Virus record (IMG/VR): IMGVR_UViG_3300045988_019695
Coordinates: 39,492 to 103,491 of that record
Length of the DNA stretch: 64,000 bases
Direction: 5' to 3' (one strand)
Source: a virus
Numbering within the stretch: the stretch's first letter is position 1; every line of letters begins with the position of its first letter. This document shows, piece by piece, positions 6,332-50,890 of the stretch. The position numbers and the translations under genes were made by a program. Below the pieces are notes generated by a model that saw only the letters and a program-made list of their open reading frames with translations, was not told where the DNA came from and did no database searches.

Positions 6332-7182
6332 TCGGAGTCGTTAATTCCGAATCGCTAGCTATGGCATTCTCGCTAGCAGCTTCATCTTTCGATGAAGAAT
6401 TGACTATATCACAACCCTAAAGAAAGGGTTTCCAGTACTTCGGGTCACTTGACCCTACACCGTGGTTAGCGGTTAGTCGATGAACCTTCAAGTCTACTTT
6501 GTCAACACGAAGACCTTTAAGCAATCCAGCTTTAATATAGTCTCCTGTGTTCGCATGTTTTTGAATTAAACCATAAGTATAACCACTTATTCTAAATTGC
6601 TTTCTCAAAGCTTTAAACCCATATATGGTAAACTGCGCTCCATTGTAAACATTAGTAAATACATATGCAACCTGCGGACCATCTTTTGTATGTATTGGAT
6701 GGTTAAAGCAATGTCCTTTAAACAGTCCATGTTCCTTTCCGTGTTGTATATTATATTCTGGTGTGCACCATTCTAGATTAGATAGATAATTATTTAATTT
6801 ATTTCCATCTATATGGTTTACTTGTGGTAAATTGTTTGGATTATCTAGAAATGTCATAGCTACAAGTCTATTGACTCTATAGTCGTATCTTTTACCATCT
6901 TTAGTAAAAGTGACATGCAGATAACCTCTTTTATTTTTACTCGGCGATAAAAATTTATTACTTCTATGTGACCAAATATCACCATGTGTTGTACATGCGT
7001 AAAGACCTTCCCATCCCGGTATGTCTTTCATCTAGTAGCCTTGCTCGGCTGCTGATTGTCCATTTTTTATATTATTCATATATCTATAATTTTATTTATA
7101 ACTCTATGGTATAAAATTCTTTAGGAGTTTCCAGCAATTCTCTGGATTTTTCAATTTATATTACTATAAAAGGCGGCACAGG
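6332..7182 (-). mobile_element. group-I-like intron carrying an HNH homing endonuclease, splitting the capsid gene (boundaries approximate)
   Basis: An about 850-nt insert between the two capsid ORF halves. Flanks of the HNH ORF form GNRA-capped helices on the minus strand, e.g. cttcatc-GAAA-gatgaag (plus 6381-6398) and gctagc...gctagc (6354-6377). Confidence 0.5.
6417..7031 (-). CDS. HNH homing endonuclease (NUMOD4 + HNH_3 type)
   Basis: IPGWEGLYACTTHGDIWS (NUMOD4-like) and VNHIDGNKLNNYLSNLEWCTPEYNIQH (HNH). The ORF ends in TAG. Confidence 0.8.
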   Translation of the reverse strand: MKDIPGWEGLYACTTHGDIWSHRSNKFLSPSKNKRGYLHVTFTKDGKRYDYRVNRLVAMTFLDNPNNLPQVNHIDGNKLNNYLSNLEWCTPEYNIQHGKEHGLFKGHCFNHPIHTKDGPQVAYVFTNVYNGAQFTIYGFKALRKQFRISGYTYGLIQKHANTGDYIKAGLLKGLRVDKVDLKVHRLTANHGVGSSDPKYWKPFL

Positions 7183-8869: not shown

Positions 8870-10480
8870 TCAATGTTTCCAACCTGCTGCATTATGTGCA
8901 AAGTTGGCTTTCTTTCTCATAGCTGCACTATACTTACTTGGATTACTTAAAACTCTATTAGCAAAACTTTGGATACTCATACCATGCTATTTAGCTGCTT
9001 TAGTAAATGTTCCACGCTTAGATTTCTTGATATGTATATCTTTACCAGAATTAAATTTTCTTTTATTTGTTGGTATTTTGTTTCGTTCTACGATACCAAC
9101 ACTTTCTCTAAATTGACTCTCTACTGGAGAAGCTGGATTATATACAACATTCTTATAATGCCCATCAAATAACTATCCTCTAGGCTATGCATTACTTAAT
9201 GCATCTAACAGATCTTCAGGAAGATTTTTTGAATTTAAAATATCAGTATCATGTACCTATGATGTATATTTCGGCCTAAGAACATAATCCATAAACTAAT
9301 AATCTTTTAGTCTTGGTCTATTAGCTTTTGCAGCCTCTTCTAGTAAAGCCTATTCAAACTCACTACCGTAATCTCTAGGTTTTTCTAAAAGAAAACGTCC
9401 AGATTTTCTTGAATCGGCATTTTTCTGCATTAATTCAAATGCTTTGCGAAGTTTCTGATTAGTGTTCTAATCAAATACCTAAATGTTCTTTGTTGGGACT
9501 TTTATGTTTTCTCCAAACGTAAAAGTGTCAGAAGGTCTAGTAGATATAACGTTTTTACCAAGTAAACTTTTACCAGGGAATCTAAGTATTGGTCTAGTAC
9601 TCCAATCTCCACCAGAATTTGGAAGAACTGGATAATCTGTAGTAAAGTTACTTATTAGCGGACTTACATCGCCAGAGTCATAAGCAAATCTACTATTTAT
9701 TGGAGATACTATAGTATATTTCTAGCTCATATCTGGTAAAATACTATACCTTCTATACAAGTCTGGAAACTATGCGTCGAACCCATATTTAATCTTTCCT
9801 CCAATATATCTAAGGTATTGAGCATTCGGATTGTCACTAAAGTATATTTGTTTTGCGACATTTTTTATTTCCGGTAAAGCCTTTCCTGCTACTGGAACCA
9901 TTCCGAGAACGCCATATGGATTACCATCTGATAACTCCTTTGCACCTTTTAATGCAAAATACATATCAGCAGCAGGCTATGTTATTGGATGTAAAGCAAG
10001 TGCAGTCATTCCACCATCTATAGCATCAGCTACTTCTCCTTGCCAAGTTTTCTAATACTGAGCATTCTATATATCTTTCTTCGTCTAAAGATCTGACATA
10101 TATTTATCAAATGCAGCATCACCCATATATTCTTTAAGATCCATAAGTTCTTTATTGCGTTCTGCAGCATCTACTTTGGAAATGTCTCGCTAATTAACAT
10201 TTACTTCCTGCAATCGTCTATTAACACGTTCTCCTGTTTTTAGTATATCTTGTCCTGTGTATGGATCGTGTCCAACAATGTCTCTAAGATAAACCATTCT
10301 AGCATCATCTCCAGTATCAAATTTAGGAATCTTAAGTTTCTTTCTAAGCTACTTCTCAGCTATCTACTAATCTGCTTCAGCCTATGCTTTTCTTCTACGT
10401 TTAATCTTACGAAAGAGCTTATGACGCTGATAGTCATTCTTCTTCTGCATCTTTCGCTTAGGACTTTCCATCTATGTCAT
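8870..10480 (-). CDS. 536-codon virion-module protein of unknown function (TAG read as sense)
   Basis: ATG at 10480 overlaps the upstream TGA. All frame triplets were checked: about 25 in-frame TAGs, no TAA/TGA until TGA at 8870. Includes track ORF 9770-9964. C-terminus reads ...GTFTKAAK-TAG-HGMSIQSFANRVLSNPSKYSAAMRKKANFAHNAAGWKH. Confidence 0.65.
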
Positions 10481-23564: not shown

Positions 23565-23570
23565 ATATAT

Positions 23571-23643
23571 GAGGACGCAGTGGAATCGAACCACTGTCTC
23601 TAAATCTTCAAATTTAGAAAGTTAACCATTACTACAACACCCT
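23571..23643 (-). tRNA. tRNA-like gene, Phe(GAA)-like with atypical anticodon loop
   Basis: Canonical T arm AGTGG-TTCGATT-CCACT and acceptor AGGGTGT/GCGTCCT. Anticodon stem CTAAA/TTTAG encloses 8 nt TTTGAAGA (or 6 bp plus a 6-nt loop) rather than 7. Confidence 0.55.
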
Positions 23644-23653
23644 CATTCTGTTG

Positions 23654-23725
23654 TTGCGGAGGACGGATTCGGACCGCCGACCTTTAGGTTATGAGCCTAA
23701 CGAGCCACCACTGCTCCACTCCGCG
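23654..23725 (-). tRNA. initiator-type tRNA-fMet (CAU)
   Basis: CGCGGAGTGGAGCAGTGGTGGCTCGTTAGGCTCATAACCTAAAGGTCGGCGGTCCGAATCCGTCCTCCGCAA. It has a C1-A72 mismatch, an A11-T24 pair and loop CT-CAT-AA, and closely parallels E. coli tRNA-fMet as I remember it. Confidence 0.8.
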
Positions 23726-23864
23726 ATAAGCACGTAACCTTTAGCTGGAGTTACGCAGAACCAGTATTGGGTCCATGTGTCAGCTTACCATGGTAGCCTT
23801 TTATTTATAGTGTACACACATGGATGCCACTTTATTAAACTATAAAATTTAATTCAAAAAGTCG

Positions 23865-23938
23865 GAGTCTATGCAGGAGTCGAACCTGCTAACTATTCCC
23901 TTTGTATCGGGCCGTCTTTACCGTTTGACTAATAGACT
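23865..23938 (-). tRNA. tRNA-like gene, isotype unresolved
   Basis: Perfect acceptor AGTCTAT/ATAGACT and T arm GCAGG-TTCGACT-CCTGC. The anticodon region GGCCC-GATACAAA-GGGAA gives only 3 Watson-Crick pairs and an 8-nt loop. Confidence 0.45.
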
Positions 23939-28500: not shown

Positions 28501-29172
28501 ATGTCAAAGTATCGTTTATTTAACATGTCGGTGCTGCAGGCAAAGCCTCAGCCAGGACAAACTGAAGGTAATTTCTATGTAGCTGGAACTCTCGAAAACC
28601 AGGAGTGTGTGTTTGAAGAGAATACAAACATTGTTATGTTTGGAGTTGATGGACTCATTGCAGCTATTCGTCCATATTTGGATGCAGCTCATGGAGGTAC
28701 AGCTCAAACATCTAACGAAGACAATATTCCAGAACGCTATCGCTTCTTGAATGGCATCTTTGTACGCCAGAAGCTTGAGCATGGAATGAGTTATTTGTTG
28801 GATAACAATGGAAGTCCAAGATTGGACAAATCATCAAATCAGCCTATAACTATGGACTCTGTTCTTGTATTCTGCATCCTCATCAGTGAGACACCAAAGG
28901 TTGATGGCACACCAAACTATGCCAAAAACTGGGACCCTGTTTCAAGAGTTCGCTCTATTGAACGTCAGTTCTTCAGACCTGTATCAAACCAGCCAGCTAC
29001 ACAGGCAGGTGTTGCAGCTCCACAGCCAGCTCCTGACCCATTAGCAGCAGCTATGGGAGCTCCTCAACAGCAGCCAGCTCCTCAGCCTAATGTAGCACAA
29101 CCTGCTCCACAGCAGCCAGCTCCAGGCAGCGTGCCTCCAGCACCAGGAGCAGTGCCACCAGCATCCTTCTAA
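28501..29172 (+). CDS. hypothetical protein with Pro/Gln/Ala-rich C-terminal tail
   Basis: 223-aa ORF with biased codons; tail APQPAPDPLAAAMGAPQQQPAPQPNVAQPAPQQPAPGSVPPAPGAVPPASF. Confidence 0.6.
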   Translation: MSKYRLFNMSVLQAKPQPGQTEGNFYVAGTLENQECVFEENTNIVMFGVDGLIAAIRPYLDAAHGGTAQTSNEDNIPERYRFLNGIFVRQKLEHGMSYLLDNNGSPRLDKSSNQPITMDSVLVFCILISETPKVDGTPNYAKNWDPVSRVRSIERQFFRPVSNQPATQAGVAAPQPAPDPLAAAMGAPQQQPAPQPNVAQPAPQQPAPGSVPPAPGAVPPASF

Positions 29173-29184
29173 CTAGCTTGCATC

Positions 29185-29216
29185 GTAGCGCCCTCGTGGC
29201 GCTACCTTGCTTCTTT
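29185..29216 (+). terminator. intrinsic terminator
   Basis: gtagcgcc-ctcgt-ggcgctac followed by cttgcttcttt. Confidence 0.6.
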
Positions 29217-30035
29217 GACAAATGCAACTCGCTTCGCTCAGACATCAGCTTAAAGCTTGCTTAGAGCTTGCCAAAGAAAGGAGATGGCAAGATACACAGG
29301 TGAAATTTCAGATAGAACAGATAGATAATATAAAACATAATAAAGAAGTAATCCTTGATTGAAAATTCAATATATGATTGCACAATATGCTCATTAATTT
29401 AGGGTTATTTAATTGCTAAGCGTAGCACAATAAGCGTGGATACATATCACAGTCTGTGAAGATAGTGGTATGTTTATTTTAAACTCAGCTAGGGAGAGTC
29501 TAACATAATCACTGATGAGACCTAGGCGAAACTACACGTTGCATCATAGTGTAGTCTGATTAATTACTCAAAAGCGCAAATAGACCTCACAATACAATGG
29601 TCTGTGAAGATAGTTGTATTGAACCGTTATCTCATGCGGTATATAAACTAGGATGACGGAGCGCCTACGCTAACGTGATAAATCGTAGGCAGTAATGTGG
29701 CAAGACATGGTCCCAAGCCCATGCACTACAACACGTGCTTATGGTACTTGCAAAGCTATAAGAGGTTCGCTTGTAGGACACAGAGGGTTAAATAGTAGTA
29801 TTACATGTATGCTGAGAAGAGACGTACAGCCTGCTTGCAAGAGGTGCTTCGTGAAATGCAATCTCTTCTCTATGACAATCCGAAGAGACGGATAGTGGTT
29901 ATTATACGCTTACTGAAGTAAGAGGGTATACTATGCACGAATTCATATAAGGATATTGTGCTTGGCTATATAAAGTGCACACATAGCGACGGTTCGAGTC
30001 CAGTAACCACTCTACCCTATCATGTTTTTTAGTTA
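29217..30035 (+). ncRNA. ORF-free structured island 1 (candidate non-coding RNA; ends approximate)
   Basis: No credible ORF on either strand. Many helices (listed in findings). Closing helix AGTGGTTA (29894-29901) / TAACCACT (30005-30012), then catgtttttt at about 30022. Confidence 0.45.
29506..29562 (+). ncRNA. hammerhead ribozyme candidate (stem I open, type I topology)
   Basis: Stem I TAATCA (29506-11) / TGATTA (29557-62). Core CTGATGA (29512-18). Short stem II GAC-cta-GGC (29519-27). GAA (29528-30). Stem III ACTACAC (29531-37) / GTGTAGT (29549-55). Cleavage-site C at 29556. Confidence 0.6.
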
Positions 30036-30121
30036 CAATTTTAGTCCATTTGGCATGGGTACATTGGTTCGTGAGAATAGATGTACCATTTTGATGATTA
30101 TTAATCAAACTAATATATATT

Positions 30122-30412
30122 ATGAATGACGAAAAACATTCTTTCATGGACCAATTAAACTTATTCCTAGTAGGATTAATTGTTGGAGCATTTGTTGGAG
30201 CCTGTTTTAGTGCTAATGTCGTAAAAGGCAAGAACATTAAGACAGAGAATAAGCTTAAAGCGTATGAACAGTACTATAATTGTACTGAAACGCTTTTGGA
30301 TTCTCTTGATGGTACACATAATCTTGATCTGATGGATACAGATCTTGCAACAGATTATGGTGCAAATTATTTAGATGCAAAATCTAAGGTAGACAACTTA
30401 ATTGACAAGTAA
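30122..30412 (+). CDS. small membrane protein (one TM)
   Basis: 96-aa ORF; LNLFLVGLIVGAFVGACFSANVV. Confidence 0.55.
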   Translation: MNDEKHSFMDQLNLFLVGLIVGAFVGACFSANVVKGKNIKTENKLKAYEQYYNCTETLLDSLDGTHNLDLMDTDLATDYGANYLDAKSKVDNLIDK

Positions 30413-30646: not shown

Positions 30647-30788
30647 GTTGCATCAACCCTAAGTGTTTAATGTAGCCGTAGGGAGTCCAAAGCCTCCAAA
30701 GGGAAACCGAATTACAGATGGAACACAAAGCTCAAGTATAGGTGAGAAGTAGTCCTATACAAGTAAATAATGTTTAATTATCAAAATT

Positions 30789-35334: not shown

Positions 35335-35542
35335 ATATATTTTTAGCCATATTCTAAGCGTTCTGAGGCGTCATAGGAGATAAGTGGAGTAATTAACCAC
35401 GATGCTTCCGAAAGCTCCTTAGAACGCATCTAAAGTGGCTTAAATCGAATGTTCTGACTGATCATCAGGACATTTACAAAAAGAATGTACAGTGTGTATG
35501 AAATAATCTGGCAAGACCGCGGTTCGAATCCGCGCATGTCCA
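35335..35542 (+). ncRNA. candidate structured RNA ending in a tRNA-like acceptor/T-arm module
   Basis: Nested helices ttagcca/tggcttaa (35343-49 / 35436-43) and gcgttctgagg/ccttagaacgc (35358-68 / 35417-27), plus inner hairpins. 35469-35542 has acceptor GGACAT/ATGTCC and T arm CGCGG-TTCGAAT-CCGCG but no canonical anticodon arm. Confidence 0.4.
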
Positions 35543-35791
35543 CATCCCTAATAAAGGGTCTGCTAAGAACAAACAGACAACCTAAGTATGTTGTAAAACT
35601 GCTTATATGGGCATGTTTTGGCTTTGATTGTCAGAGGAGATAAATACGTTAAGCACTATACTATAAATTAAACGACAATGTAAACAACATTGTAGACTAT
35701 ACTAACGTAGCGTAAGTTTAGTCTAGGTGTTTCCTACCAAAGTGGAGAGAAGGATTTTGGGGTTCGACTCCCCATTTCCTTCCTATTAGTT

Positions 35792-36313
35792 ATGACAAAG
35801 GGATATAAAGCGATGATAAAGGACAGGTGTCCTTATGTCGTCAACCTAGCATTTAAATGGTGTACAGAGTTTGGAAGATTATCTAATATAGGTAAGAAAC
35901 CACACGAAAGAATTAAGTACGCTGTAAAAACGCGATGGATAGACCGTGTATATCAAGAAAATATAGCAATCTACAACACTGGACGAGGAATACCTCGAAC
36001 AGATGAGAAGGATGCTTCATTAAGAAAAGCTCTTGGGATACACGAGGGGTCTCAAAACTTTAATTTTGCAGACTCTATAAACTTAGAATGTATTAACAAG
36101 ACTTTCAATGCTGGAGAATACGCATTTTGGATATGGGTAAATAGCTGGGTAGTATGGTTTCAAGATAACTATAAATTCCTAGAGAACTATTACAAAATAT
36201 CATGTAAATGTGGCAACATGGCTCTATTTGATAATTATTTATCAGAAAAAGCTGGATTCCTAGATAATTATCTTGAAGATTTCTCTAAGTTTATTAAGAA
36301 AACATTTAATTAA
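35792..36313 (+). CDS. hypothetical protein (173 aa)
   Basis: Intact ORF. Confidence 0.55.
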   Translation: MTKGYKAMIKDRCPYVVNLAFKWCTEFGRLSNIGKKPHERIKYAVKTRWIDRVYQENIAIYNTGRGIPRTDEKDASLRKALGIHEGSQNFNFADSINLECINKTFNAGEYAFWIWVNSWVVWFQDNYKFLENYYKISCKCGNMALFDNYLSEKAGFLDNYLEDFSKFIKKTFN

Positions 36314-39411: not shown

Positions 39412-39813
39412 ATGAAAAAATTAGTAATTACGTTGCTAGGAGCAGCATTTCTTGTTGTTGGCATGAATATTGCTGATCTTAAGAATGTTCCCCTTCCAAC
39501 GACAGTGCAAACAGTAGCAGCATCTACTGTACAGCAACCAATGGATCATTTATTTGATCAAGTGAAACATGCTAATCCTGATACAGTGCGTGATACCGTT
39601 AAGGTAGAAGTGCCTGTACCTTGTAAACATAAACAGTTGCCTGCAAAGACAATTGTTAAGCACACCATAATTAAGAAGACAGATACGTCGTATGTACCAC
39701 TTCTGTATATTATGGAACCTGGAGAAAAGGTCGACTCCACTAATCATGACTTTACCATTCGTAAGGGAGAGCTCCGTGATTATATTCAAATCGCCTCTAA
39801 TGTACACAAGTAA
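39412..39813 (+). CDS. secreted/membrane-anchored protein
   Basis: N-terminal MKKLVITLLGAAFLVVGMNIA signal-like segment. Confidence 0.55.
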   Translation: MKKLVITLLGAAFLVVGMNIADLKNVPLPTTVQTVAASTVQQPMDHLFDQVKHANPDTVRDTVKVEVPVPCKHKQLPAKTIVKHTIIKKTDTSYVPLLYIMEPGEKVDSTNHDFTIRKGELRDYIQIASNVHK

Positions 39814-50040: not shown

Positions 50041-50890
50041 TGTGAAAATGGAGCTATAGATAGAAATATCTACAGAAAATTCCGTGAATTGCTGAAACCT
50101 CTTTCCCATTTGTATCGTTATAGCAATATAAGGTATAATAGGAAAGAAAATCAGCAGCATTTATTATGAAACAAGAGACTTTAGAAAAGTATATTGGTAA
50201 AACGTGGGGAGTCTTAACTTGTATTGGTATAGATCACGAAGACTATGATAAAGAAAAGCAATCGAAAAGGACATATTTTAAGGTAAAGTGTTCGAGATGT
50301 GGATCTGAATCTGTAGTTAGAAGTGATAGATTTTTTAACAAGAAATATATACCAAAATCATGCACTAACTGTGTAGATGATTTGCAAGTTGAAACAGCTA
50401 ATAAAAAGTATCCGAAAGAAAGAAGATTGCTAAATATGCAAATATCAAAATATACACATAATAGCAACAGAAAAGGAAAGATCGTTAAATCTTTTCTATC
50501 TAAAGAAGAAGCAGAAAAAATGTTAACTTCGAAATGTTTTTATTGCGGAAAAGAAAACGCAATGGGAATAGATAGGATAGATTCATCTAAAGATTATACT
50601 TTAGATAATTGCGTTCCTTGCTGCGGAATGTGTAATATTATGAAAAATAAATTTAACATAGATAAGTGGTTTTCTAAAATTGGAGAAATTTATAGAACTC
50701 ACGTTGATAGGTGTTCAACGACTATCCCGAAAGGGAGTACATCACAAGCTAATGGTGATGGAAGTGCGGAACTCCTGACTGCCGCATAAAGTAAAAGGAG
50801 ATGATATAGTCTATTCTGTACGGTGACGTACAGCAGTTCACAAAAGAACGTATATAGATTTGCGAACTATATAGAATGCAAAAGATCGCC
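50041..50890 (+). mobile_element. group-I-like intron carrying an HNH endonuclease, splitting the Sak4-like gene (boundaries approximate)
   Basis: GNRA-capped helices tagata-GAAA-tatcta (about 50058-73) and ctgtacg-GTGA-cgtacag (about 50816-33), plus tatatag...ctatata (about 50852-74). An HNH ORF lies inside. Confidence 0.55.
50166..50789 (+). CDS. HNH homing endonuclease
   Basis: Zn-ribbon-like CSRCG...CTNC and YCGKENAMGIDRIDSSKDYTLDNCVPCCGMCNIMKNKF. Confidence 0.8.
   Translation: MKQETLEKYIGKTWGVLTCIGIDHEDYDKEKQSKRTYFKVKCSRCGSESVVRSDRFFNKKYIPKSCTNCVDDLQVETANKKYPKERRLLNMQISKYTHNSNRKGKIVKSFLSKEEAEKMLTSKCFYCGKENAMGIDRIDSSKDYTLDNCVPCCGMCNIMKNKFNIDKWFSKIGEIYRTHVDRCSTTIPKGSTSQANGDGSAELLTAA

Follow-up and report, generated by a model that had tools for sequence, protein, structure and literature searches.

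The stretch of viral DNA analysed here, 64,000 nucleotides long (IMG/VR record IMGVR_UViG_3300045988_019695, positions 39,492 to 103,491; "the window"), carries at 29482-29562 of its (+) strand what is very probably a type I hammerhead ribozyme of the RAGATH-1 variant class, predicted from its sequence to self-cleave. The genome is that of a Burzaovirus-like crAss phage, and crAss-like phages rank with the most abundant viruses of the human gut. Taken by itself the hammerhead is nothing new: it is annotated by a routine Rfam scan, departs from RAGATH-1 in no defining feature and is of a kind already known. The interest lies in the setting, which comprises a terminator-like hairpin, the hammerhead, an RNA of fixed length, an atypical twister, an unclassified structured RNA and a second twister, and in the recurring placement after terminator-like hairpins, with 14-31 nucleotides (nt) to the next start codon in other phages. 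Three predicted ribozymes in 1.2 kb of one transcription unit, together with natural hammerhead-deletion variants, make the locus a natural test case.

Family assignment and conservation of the hammerhead

In a cmscan of the whole window against Rfam 15 (4227 families), RF03152 (RAGATH-1 hammerhead) matches the (+) strand at 29482-29561, stem I ending at 29562 on direct reading, with 71.8 bits (E = 3.7e-10) over model positions 1-77 of 77. The gathering score of the family is 56.3 bits, so the match passes the curated threshold of the Rfam check that an earlier, sequence-only reading of the same DNA had suggested; against Hammerhead_3 the region reaches only 14.7 bits. That reading had listed hammerhead elements between 29506 and 29562 (TAATCA, CTGATGA, GAA, ACTACAC/GTGTAGT, C17 at 29556, TGATTA), all of which are found as it gave them, and had predicted a cut at 29556/29557, which agrees with hammerhead numbering on the Rfam alignment. 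The Rfam model starts 24 nt further 5', at a small hairpin absent from that reading. The invariant core is complete (C3 U4 G5 A6 N7 G8 A9, G12 A13 A14, A29531-U29555 and C29556, with H at 17), and the cleavage triplet is GUC, of the NUH type. A covariance model built from five other phage sequences, with the window left out, has 47 matches and finds the window at 65.9 bits (E 4.5e-10). RAGATH-1 originates in the survey of Weinberg et al. 2017 (PMC5737381), and RAGATH hammerhead variants are reported as ribozymes that self-cleave (PMC11061315).

Two details of the sequence-only reading have to be revised. Stem II, there described as G-C, A/G mismatch and C-G, consists of the one pair G29519-C29527 and a 7-nt loop, of which 29521-25 take part in a pseudoknot; the stem is so short because the pseudoknot with the upstream hairpin, the defining feature of RAGATH-1, stands in for a normal stem II. 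The palindrome CCTAGG in this loop had been proposed to pair between two molecules. Relatives read CCUAGA, the palindrome CCUAGG being due here solely to G29526, and within one molecule the loop is already engaged with the upstream hairpin, in pairs that covary, by which dimerisation through the palindrome is ruled out.

The fold is under selection, as judged from pair counts on 42 distinct sequences, in an alignment from the independent covariance model to which the pseudoknot was added by hand. Paired cells amount to 93.8%, against 68.0% in shuffles and 24-36% with slid partners, and 19 of 24 hammerhead pairs are changed on both sides. The stem of the pseudoknot hairpin is 97.3% paired (4 of 4 pairs changed on both sides), stem I 88.6% (5 of 5), stem III 92.4% (7 of 9) and the pseudoknot 98.2% (3 of 5, with the variants UA/CG, AU/UA/CG and GC/AU), while stem II is one invariant G-C pair throughout. 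In other loci the pseudoknot strands are CUUGG/CCAAG, CCUAG/CUAGG, CUAAG/CUUAG, CCAGG/CCUGG, CCCGG/CCGGG and CCAAG/CUUGG, and they always change together.

Among phage records searched with BLAST, the window is ~80% identical to crAssphage cr7_1 and 78% to cr124_1, both Crassvirales, Suoliviridae, Oafivirinae, Burzaovirus. In cr130_1, of the genus Chuhaivirus, the hammerhead is the sole stretch of a 3.5-kb query that still aligns. RF03152 scores 68.6 bits in cr7_1 and 74.7 bits in cr130_1, where the triplet is GUA, not GUC; the Rfam scan of these relatives gives no RF03152 match in cr124_1. The GenBank records of cr7_1 and cr130_1 omit the hammerhead. An IMG/VR scan with CTGATGAGACNNNGNCGAAAC yields 47 loci, and of 48 instances 44 form a proper hammerhead, their stem I and stem III sequences being diverse; the invariance of CUGAUGA across the collected loci is a requirement of the search pattern, and one model-found copy, the first hammerhead of the contig L046, has CCGAUGA instead. 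The sequence-only reading had held that loss of the core in related phages would tell against a ribozyme; in over 40 related loci the core and the helices persist, with compensatory changes.

Features of the island and its surroundings in the window; ribozyme cuts and RNA structures are predictions
Feature	Position	Strand	Description
Hairpin H1	29442-29473	+	9-bp outer stem, A/A mismatch, apical GUCU-GUGA-AGAU, then U-tract UUUAUUUU; from sequence and fold
Pseudoknot hairpin	29483-29499	+	stem ACUC 29483-86 / GAGU 29496-99, loop AGCUAGGGA; Rfam alignment
Pseudoknot	29489-93 with 29521-25	+	CUAGG with CCUAG, 5 bp, hairpin loop to stem II loop; Rfam alignment
Stem I, 5' strand	29506-29511	+	UAAUCA; sequence and Rfam alignment
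Catalytic core (C3-A9)	29512-29518	+	CUGAUGA; sequence
Stem II	29519-29527	+	single G10.1-C11.1 pair (G29519/C29527), 7-nt loop ACCUAGG
Core GAA	29528-29530	+	G12 A13 A14; sequence and Rfam alignment
Stem III	29531-29555	+	7 bp, ACUACAC 29531-37 / GUGUAGU 29549-55, 11-nt loop; first pair A15.1-U16.1
Predicted cleavage site	29556-29557	+	C17 (29556) / U1.1 (29557); hammerhead numbering on Rfam alignment
Stem I, 3' strand	29557-29562	+	UGAUUA; predicted 5' end of downstream product
Inter-ribozyme RNA	29557-29693	+	137 nt: ~33-nt variable single-stranded 5' tail, H2, helix, hairpin
Hairpin H2	29590-29621	+	same GUGA module as H1; within inter-ribozyme RNA
Helix of inter-ribozyme RNA	29624-32 with 29650-59	+	CCGUUAUCU with AGGAUGACGG; consensus fold
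3' hairpin of inter-ribozyme RNA	29663-69 with 29684-90	+	GCCUACG / CGUAGGC
Candidate twister 1	29693-29787	+	without conventional P1; predicted cut U29693/A29694
Twister 1 P2	29696-99 with 29779-82	+	UGUG / CACA; mapped to twister consensus
Twister 1 T2	29700-01 with 29717-18	+	GC / GC; mapped to twister consensus
Twister 1 P4	29706-10 with 29719-23	+	loop UCCCAAGC
Twister 1 T1	29712-14 with 29785-87	+	CCC / GGG of GAGGG
Twister 1 P5	29726-76	+	long, ~50 nt
Conserved structured RNA	29788-30014	+	~225 nt: helix 29814-22/29862-70, hairpin 29878-93, four-way cloverleaf-like domain closed by 10-bp 29894-903/30002-11
Third GUGA-family hairpin	30058-30087	+	apical GUUC-GUGA-GAAU, then U-tract AUUUUGAUGA; 35 nt before the open reading frame at 30122-30412
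Twister 2, type P1	30664-30725	+	P1 UGUU/AACA, predicted cut U30668/A30669, P2 UGUA/UACA, P4 loop UCCAAAGC, T1 strand GAUGG

Several collected loci carry further features of this family. The unrelated 167-kb viral contig L046 has two RAGATH-1 hammerheads (9819-9897 and 10128-10203), 310 nt apart and each 26-29 nt before an ATG; in L037 hammerhead and twister are separated by 1.7 kb. The complete-length Burzaovirus-like contig L096 (JAJWOH010000001.1, 101,563 bp) contains H1 (see table) together with the hammerhead and twister core motifs. It is binned in a Segatella copri metagenome-assembled genome, a weak hint at the host, binning being no proof.

A mini-element of ~30 nt, CATTAC-G-hairpin-C-TCCAA, with constant flanks and a variable self-complementary centre, occupies several insertion sites in the related phages. 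It stands in the hammerhead linker of L016, L018, L020, L038, L041, L047, L050, L012 and L027, in loop III of L020, L022 and L045, and elsewhere in L001 (2478), L002 (427 and 3936) and L028 (7964 and 10538); one copy lies in cr124_1 at the junction where the hammerhead module is missing. The ATTAC-hairpin-TCCAA element, which is absent from the window, may be mobile or may serve as promoter or terminator.

The island, its neighbouring ribozymes and the genome

The hammerhead lies in a non-coding island (29173-30121) between the open reading frames (ORFs) 28501-29172 and 30122-30412, which from 29384 on is kept in ~22 related loci. The island is full of covarying helices, in accordance with the sequence-only reading, which had placed the ribozyme amid other structured RNA and taken this to suggest RNA processing within a regulatory or non-coding RNA system, as may indeed be the case. 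Hairpin H1 ends 8 nt 5' of the ribozyme model, stands at the same place in ~20 related loci and looks like a terminator. Outside the island the window has no further copies of the GUGA hairpin.

Beyond the phages, the apical module GGUCUGUGAAGAUAG also caps hairpins of Bacteroides, Prevotella/Segatella, Alistipes and Parabacteroides genomes, mostly with a T-tract after the hairpin (hits L059-L137, e.g. L135, Bacteroides xylanisolvens XB1A NC_021017, as well as L119, L126, L066, L087, L101 and L133). The outer stems of the Bacteroidales hits differ yet are complementary, with at least 5 bp in ~22 of 32, and hits in other groups do not exceed chance level. The GUGA module resembles a terminator-hairpin module, widespread in Bacteroidales and possibly undescribed, that phage and host group have in common.

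The RNA between the predicted hammerhead and twister 1 cuts is 136-141 nt long in 22 distinct loci, and its consensus fold includes 5 compensated pairs. Two known families were considered for it and rejected: Bacteroides-1 (RF01694) matches 29574-29656 with 30.7 bits against a threshold of 43, the likeness being mainly that of the GUGA hairpin, and a BTnc201/MasB homologue has a sub-threshold match (16.8 bits) which spans the GUGA hairpin alone. A weak Rfam match to Prevotella-2 likewise aligns just to this hairpin.

At 29693-29787 follows a candidate twister, with a cut predicted from the sequence between U29693 and A29694. All twister consensus nucleotides are present (U-AA, GC, P4 loop GUCCCAAGCC, GAGGG), and P2, P4, T1 and T2 can form. 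On 14 distinct sequences, all of one clade and the same from which the structure was mapped by hand, 99% of cells are paired, 5 pairs are changed on both sides, and P4 and P5 are compensated; ACACAGAGGGU (29778-88) is identical in 18 of 18 aligned sequences (14 distinct). The register proposed by the Rfam family Twister-P5, with upstream GACG-GAGCG, GACGGAGCG and a closed P1, was rejected: the upstream strand it uses is not constant (GUAGCG, GCCGG, GAGAG), has another predicted pairing partner, and does not occur in cr124_1, L051 and L057, although these retain the remainder. The downstream CACA-GAGGG register is preferred because it is invariant and kept in these three, and it affords a perfect P2 (UGUG/CACA) together with the consensus GAGGG.

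The conserved RNA at 29788-30014 has 62 pairs predicted by RNAalifold, 12 of them with compensatory changes, and no Rfam match, lax filters included. Its homologues carry 10- and 19-nt indels, for which reason it is not regarded as coding. Its motif GACGGTTCGAGTCCAGT is confined to this phage clade (26 IMG/VR loci). An interpretation of GGUUCGAGUCC as a tRNA T-loop was discarded, the consensus fold pairing this motif otherwise; the motif is limited to the same clade. Equally, the ORF 29695-29895 (66 aa) was not accepted as a gene: it overlies covarying helices, and the indels of the homologues are not multiples of three.

Two small ORFs separate the third GUGA hairpin from twister 2. The latter is preceded by a stable hairpin (30639-60), and the allele of the window, common to at least 10 loci, lacks P3 and has an extra small hairpin after P4; the Rfam scan does not report it. 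The P3-bearing alleles of cr7_1 and cr124_1 reach 52.6 bits (E 3e-9) on RF03160, whose cut-off is 67.2.

Concerning the genome at large, the long ORFs together become about twice as long if TAG is taken as a sense codon, and fragments on the minus strand (1-23.5 kb and 56.7-64 kb) fuse into long genes. The plus-strand block at ~24-56 kb, with DnaB-like helicase and Toprim genes, is unaffected by TAG readthrough. The claim of the sequence-only reading that the phage is recoded is thereby borne out, and a recoded phage with the ribozyme in a non-recoded, standard-code early/replication block is a fair description. All ORFs next to the hammerhead share its strand. Six flanking ORFs have no PHROG or Pfam matches, and a function deduced from the neighbourhood was rejected, the "Lipopolysaccharide assembly protein" of cr7_1 being merely a depositor's label. 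No exact TAnnTTTG box is seen upstream.

The window contains further RNA genes. A permuted, two-piece type tmRNA gene is located at 35453-35806 (+) (RF04321, 56.5 bits, cut-off 47; ARAGORN tag peptide DNVNNIVDYTNVA). Three tRNA genes at 23570-23938 (-) adjoin the TAG-recoded late block; in one of them the anticodon loop is unusual, with 8 nt (ARAGORN 'tgaa'), another (23865-23938) is detected by Rfam alone, and no CUA anticodon of a suppressor tRNA is readable with confidence among them. Group I introns give sub-threshold matches at 50605-50833 (+) (33.4 bits) and 6380-6588 (-) (29.3 bits), with a cut-off of 50; both fit the reported density of such introns in core genes of Suoliviridae (PMC10136315).

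Proposed action and alternative explanations

We infer that the island is transcribed and the hammerhead active, with the following consequences. Transcribed from the plus strand, the RNA would fold into stem I, stem III and a one-pair stem II locked by the 5-bp pseudoknot, and the 2'-OH of C29556 would attack its own 3' phosphate. The upstream RNA would retain the ribozyme body and end in a 2',3'-cyclic phosphate; the downstream RNA would begin with a 5'-OH at U29557. Such a protein-free cut just after the terminator-like hairpin would separate the upstream transcript (ORF 28501-29172 plus terminators) from the downstream one. In this lineage the RNA that follows the hammerhead cut is non-coding. 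If candidate twister 1 is active at 29693/94, 137 nt beyond that cut, the two ribozymes would release a structured segment of fixed length as a discrete RNA, and twister 1 would also set the 5'-OH end of a ~320-nt structured RNA, or of an RNA running into ORF 30122-30412; twister 2 would cut at 30668/69, after that gene pair.

The position of hammerheads across the loci is compatible with such a role. In 10 of 25 instances examined the predicted cut lies 14-31 nt before an ATG, and for 10 of the 21 loci the 45-nt segment directly upstream falls into the most stable tenth of all windows in its locus (binomial p ~1e-5, with all windows per locus as control, intergenic regions being terminator-rich anyway and the loci not fully independent), often as a hairpin with U-tract. 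Start-codon spacing and upstream hairpins point to intercistronic processing. The roles of self-cleaving ribozymes in bacteria and phages are largely unsettled, and for the hammerheads and twisters found there a proposed role is to process polycistronic transcripts into parts that meet different fates (PMC6765202). Two hypotheses are offered here: the ribozyme may insulate read-through transcripts, and the ribozymes may yield phage non-coding RNAs. In the most extended form of the proposal, which is speculative and unlikely, crAss-like phages would possess a non-coding RNA cassette delimited by ribozymes, with the hammerhead as its 5' gate; the hammerhead and twister 1 would delimit a 136-141-nt small RNA with the GUGA module, maybe circularised by a host RtcB-type ligase, the twister would set the 5' end of the ~320-nt RNA, itself of an undescribed class, and RAGATH-1 hammerheads after leaky terminators would be protein-free insulators.

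Certain observations weigh against a hammerhead that cleaves and, with its neighbours, processes the transcript of the island, and they have to be set against the conservation described above. The sigma-70 scan, uninformative for a Bacteroidota host since its coverage leaves out Bacteroidota-type promoters, placed no promoter, and an efficient H1 would let few transcripts reach the ribozyme. Hammerhead and 137-nt RNA are missing in cr124_1, L051 and L057, L052 has a deletion through the hammerhead module, and L038 has lost its 3' half; the module is regarded as accessory because relatives lack it. This presence and absence among close relatives would suit a true RAGATH-1 member that is a decaying, inactive or neutral copy, in an accessory or selfish cassette that drifts in and out of these genomes and contributes nothing to phage gene expression, as would G29526 in place of a conserved A and the ~30-nt mini-element in the linker or loop III of the hammerhead in at least 12 relatives. 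Such a copy is nevertheless quite improbable: no core nucleotide has been lost, compensatory changes uphold every helix within the lineage and beyond, the insertions are confined to positions that a hammerhead tolerates (linker, loop III), as purifying selection on activity would leave them, L037, the sole other aligned sequence with the same G, otherwise looks intact, and the inter-ribozyme spacing is kept. That hammerhead-like motifs came together by chance in non-coding, AT-rich DNA has practically no probability. The short core motifs are each common by themselves, and the thermodynamic z-score of the fold (-1.28) is not significant. Weak z-scores of this kind are common for small ribozymes, and the same fold recovered the pseudoknot helix. 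The E-value of 3.7e-10 against the whole of Rfam, that of 4.5e-10 with the independent model and the extensive covariation refute a chance match, with the island of similarity in another genus (cr130_1) on the same side.

The twister side of the proposal meets objections of its own. Twister 1 has no closing P1 helix next to its cut site, at most 2 bp (G-U, A-U) being formed by 29691-92 with 29788-89 and the hairpin 29663-90 standing there instead, and Twister-P5 (RF02684) gives 25.0 bits at 29655-29722, against a cut-off of 37.6 and in the other, rejected register. These weaknesses would fit a hammerhead that acts alone, trimming or separating mRNAs, next to a twister 1 that is not catalytic and yields no discrete 137-nt RNA, and many other loci indeed have the hammerhead directly before an ORF without a second ribozyme. 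We regard a solitary hammerhead as somewhat unlikely, with appreciable weight all the same. The consensus nucleotides of twister 1 and its P2, P4, T1 and T2 are invariant or compensated in the 14 distinct sequences, ACACAGAGGGU does not vary in any aligned sequence, and the twister is retained in hammerhead-less relatives. Natural twisters are also reported, from a high-throughput test, to tolerate structural imperfections (PMC11662667).

Comparison with known systems

Our literature search found no paper that describes hammerheads or twisters in Burzaovirus or in any other Suoliviridae. According to one preprint, hatchet ribozymes hardly occur outside Crassvirales, so that ribozymes as such are unsurprising in this order.

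Plant retrozymes and viroid-like circular RNAs (PMC6765202, PMC5680766) resemble the island in that two self-cleaving ribozymes bracket a short structured RNA, with predicted 5'-OH and 2',3'-cyclic phosphate ends that RtcB-type ligases can join. They differ from it in that the bracketing ribozymes here belong to different classes and occur in a single copy in a double-stranded DNA phage genome, with no repeats, no reverse transcriptase and no end complementarity; circles are not in evidence. Candidate twister 1 shares with the twisters of type P1 (RF03160) and type P5 (RF02684) the conserved nucleotides, P2, P4, both pseudoknots and the U-A cleavage step, and is distinguished by the lack of P1, a local hairpin (29663-90) lying at the cut site, by a P5 of ~50 nt and by scores below the Rfam thresholds.

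With the canonical hammerheads (Rfam clan CL00010, types I-III) the element has in common the catalytic core, the three-way junction, the predicted cleavage chemistry and the site 3' of position 17, but it has neither a helix-loop stem II nor a stem I-II loop-loop contact, and the brace is formed by the external-hairpin pseudoknot. To RAGATH-1 (RF03152) it corresponds in its type I topology, the one-pair stem II with a 7-nt loop, the A/U-rich 7-nt linker, the NUH triplet and the upstream 4-bp hairpin, whose 9-nt loop is engaged in the 5-bp pseudoknot with the stem II loop; the differences are confined to G29526 for the conserved A and to the stem III loop, 11 nt here and 4 nt in the consensus. 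RAGATH motifs owe their name to an occurrence near hammerheads in phage-like DNA, an association that the neighbouring candidate twister shares.

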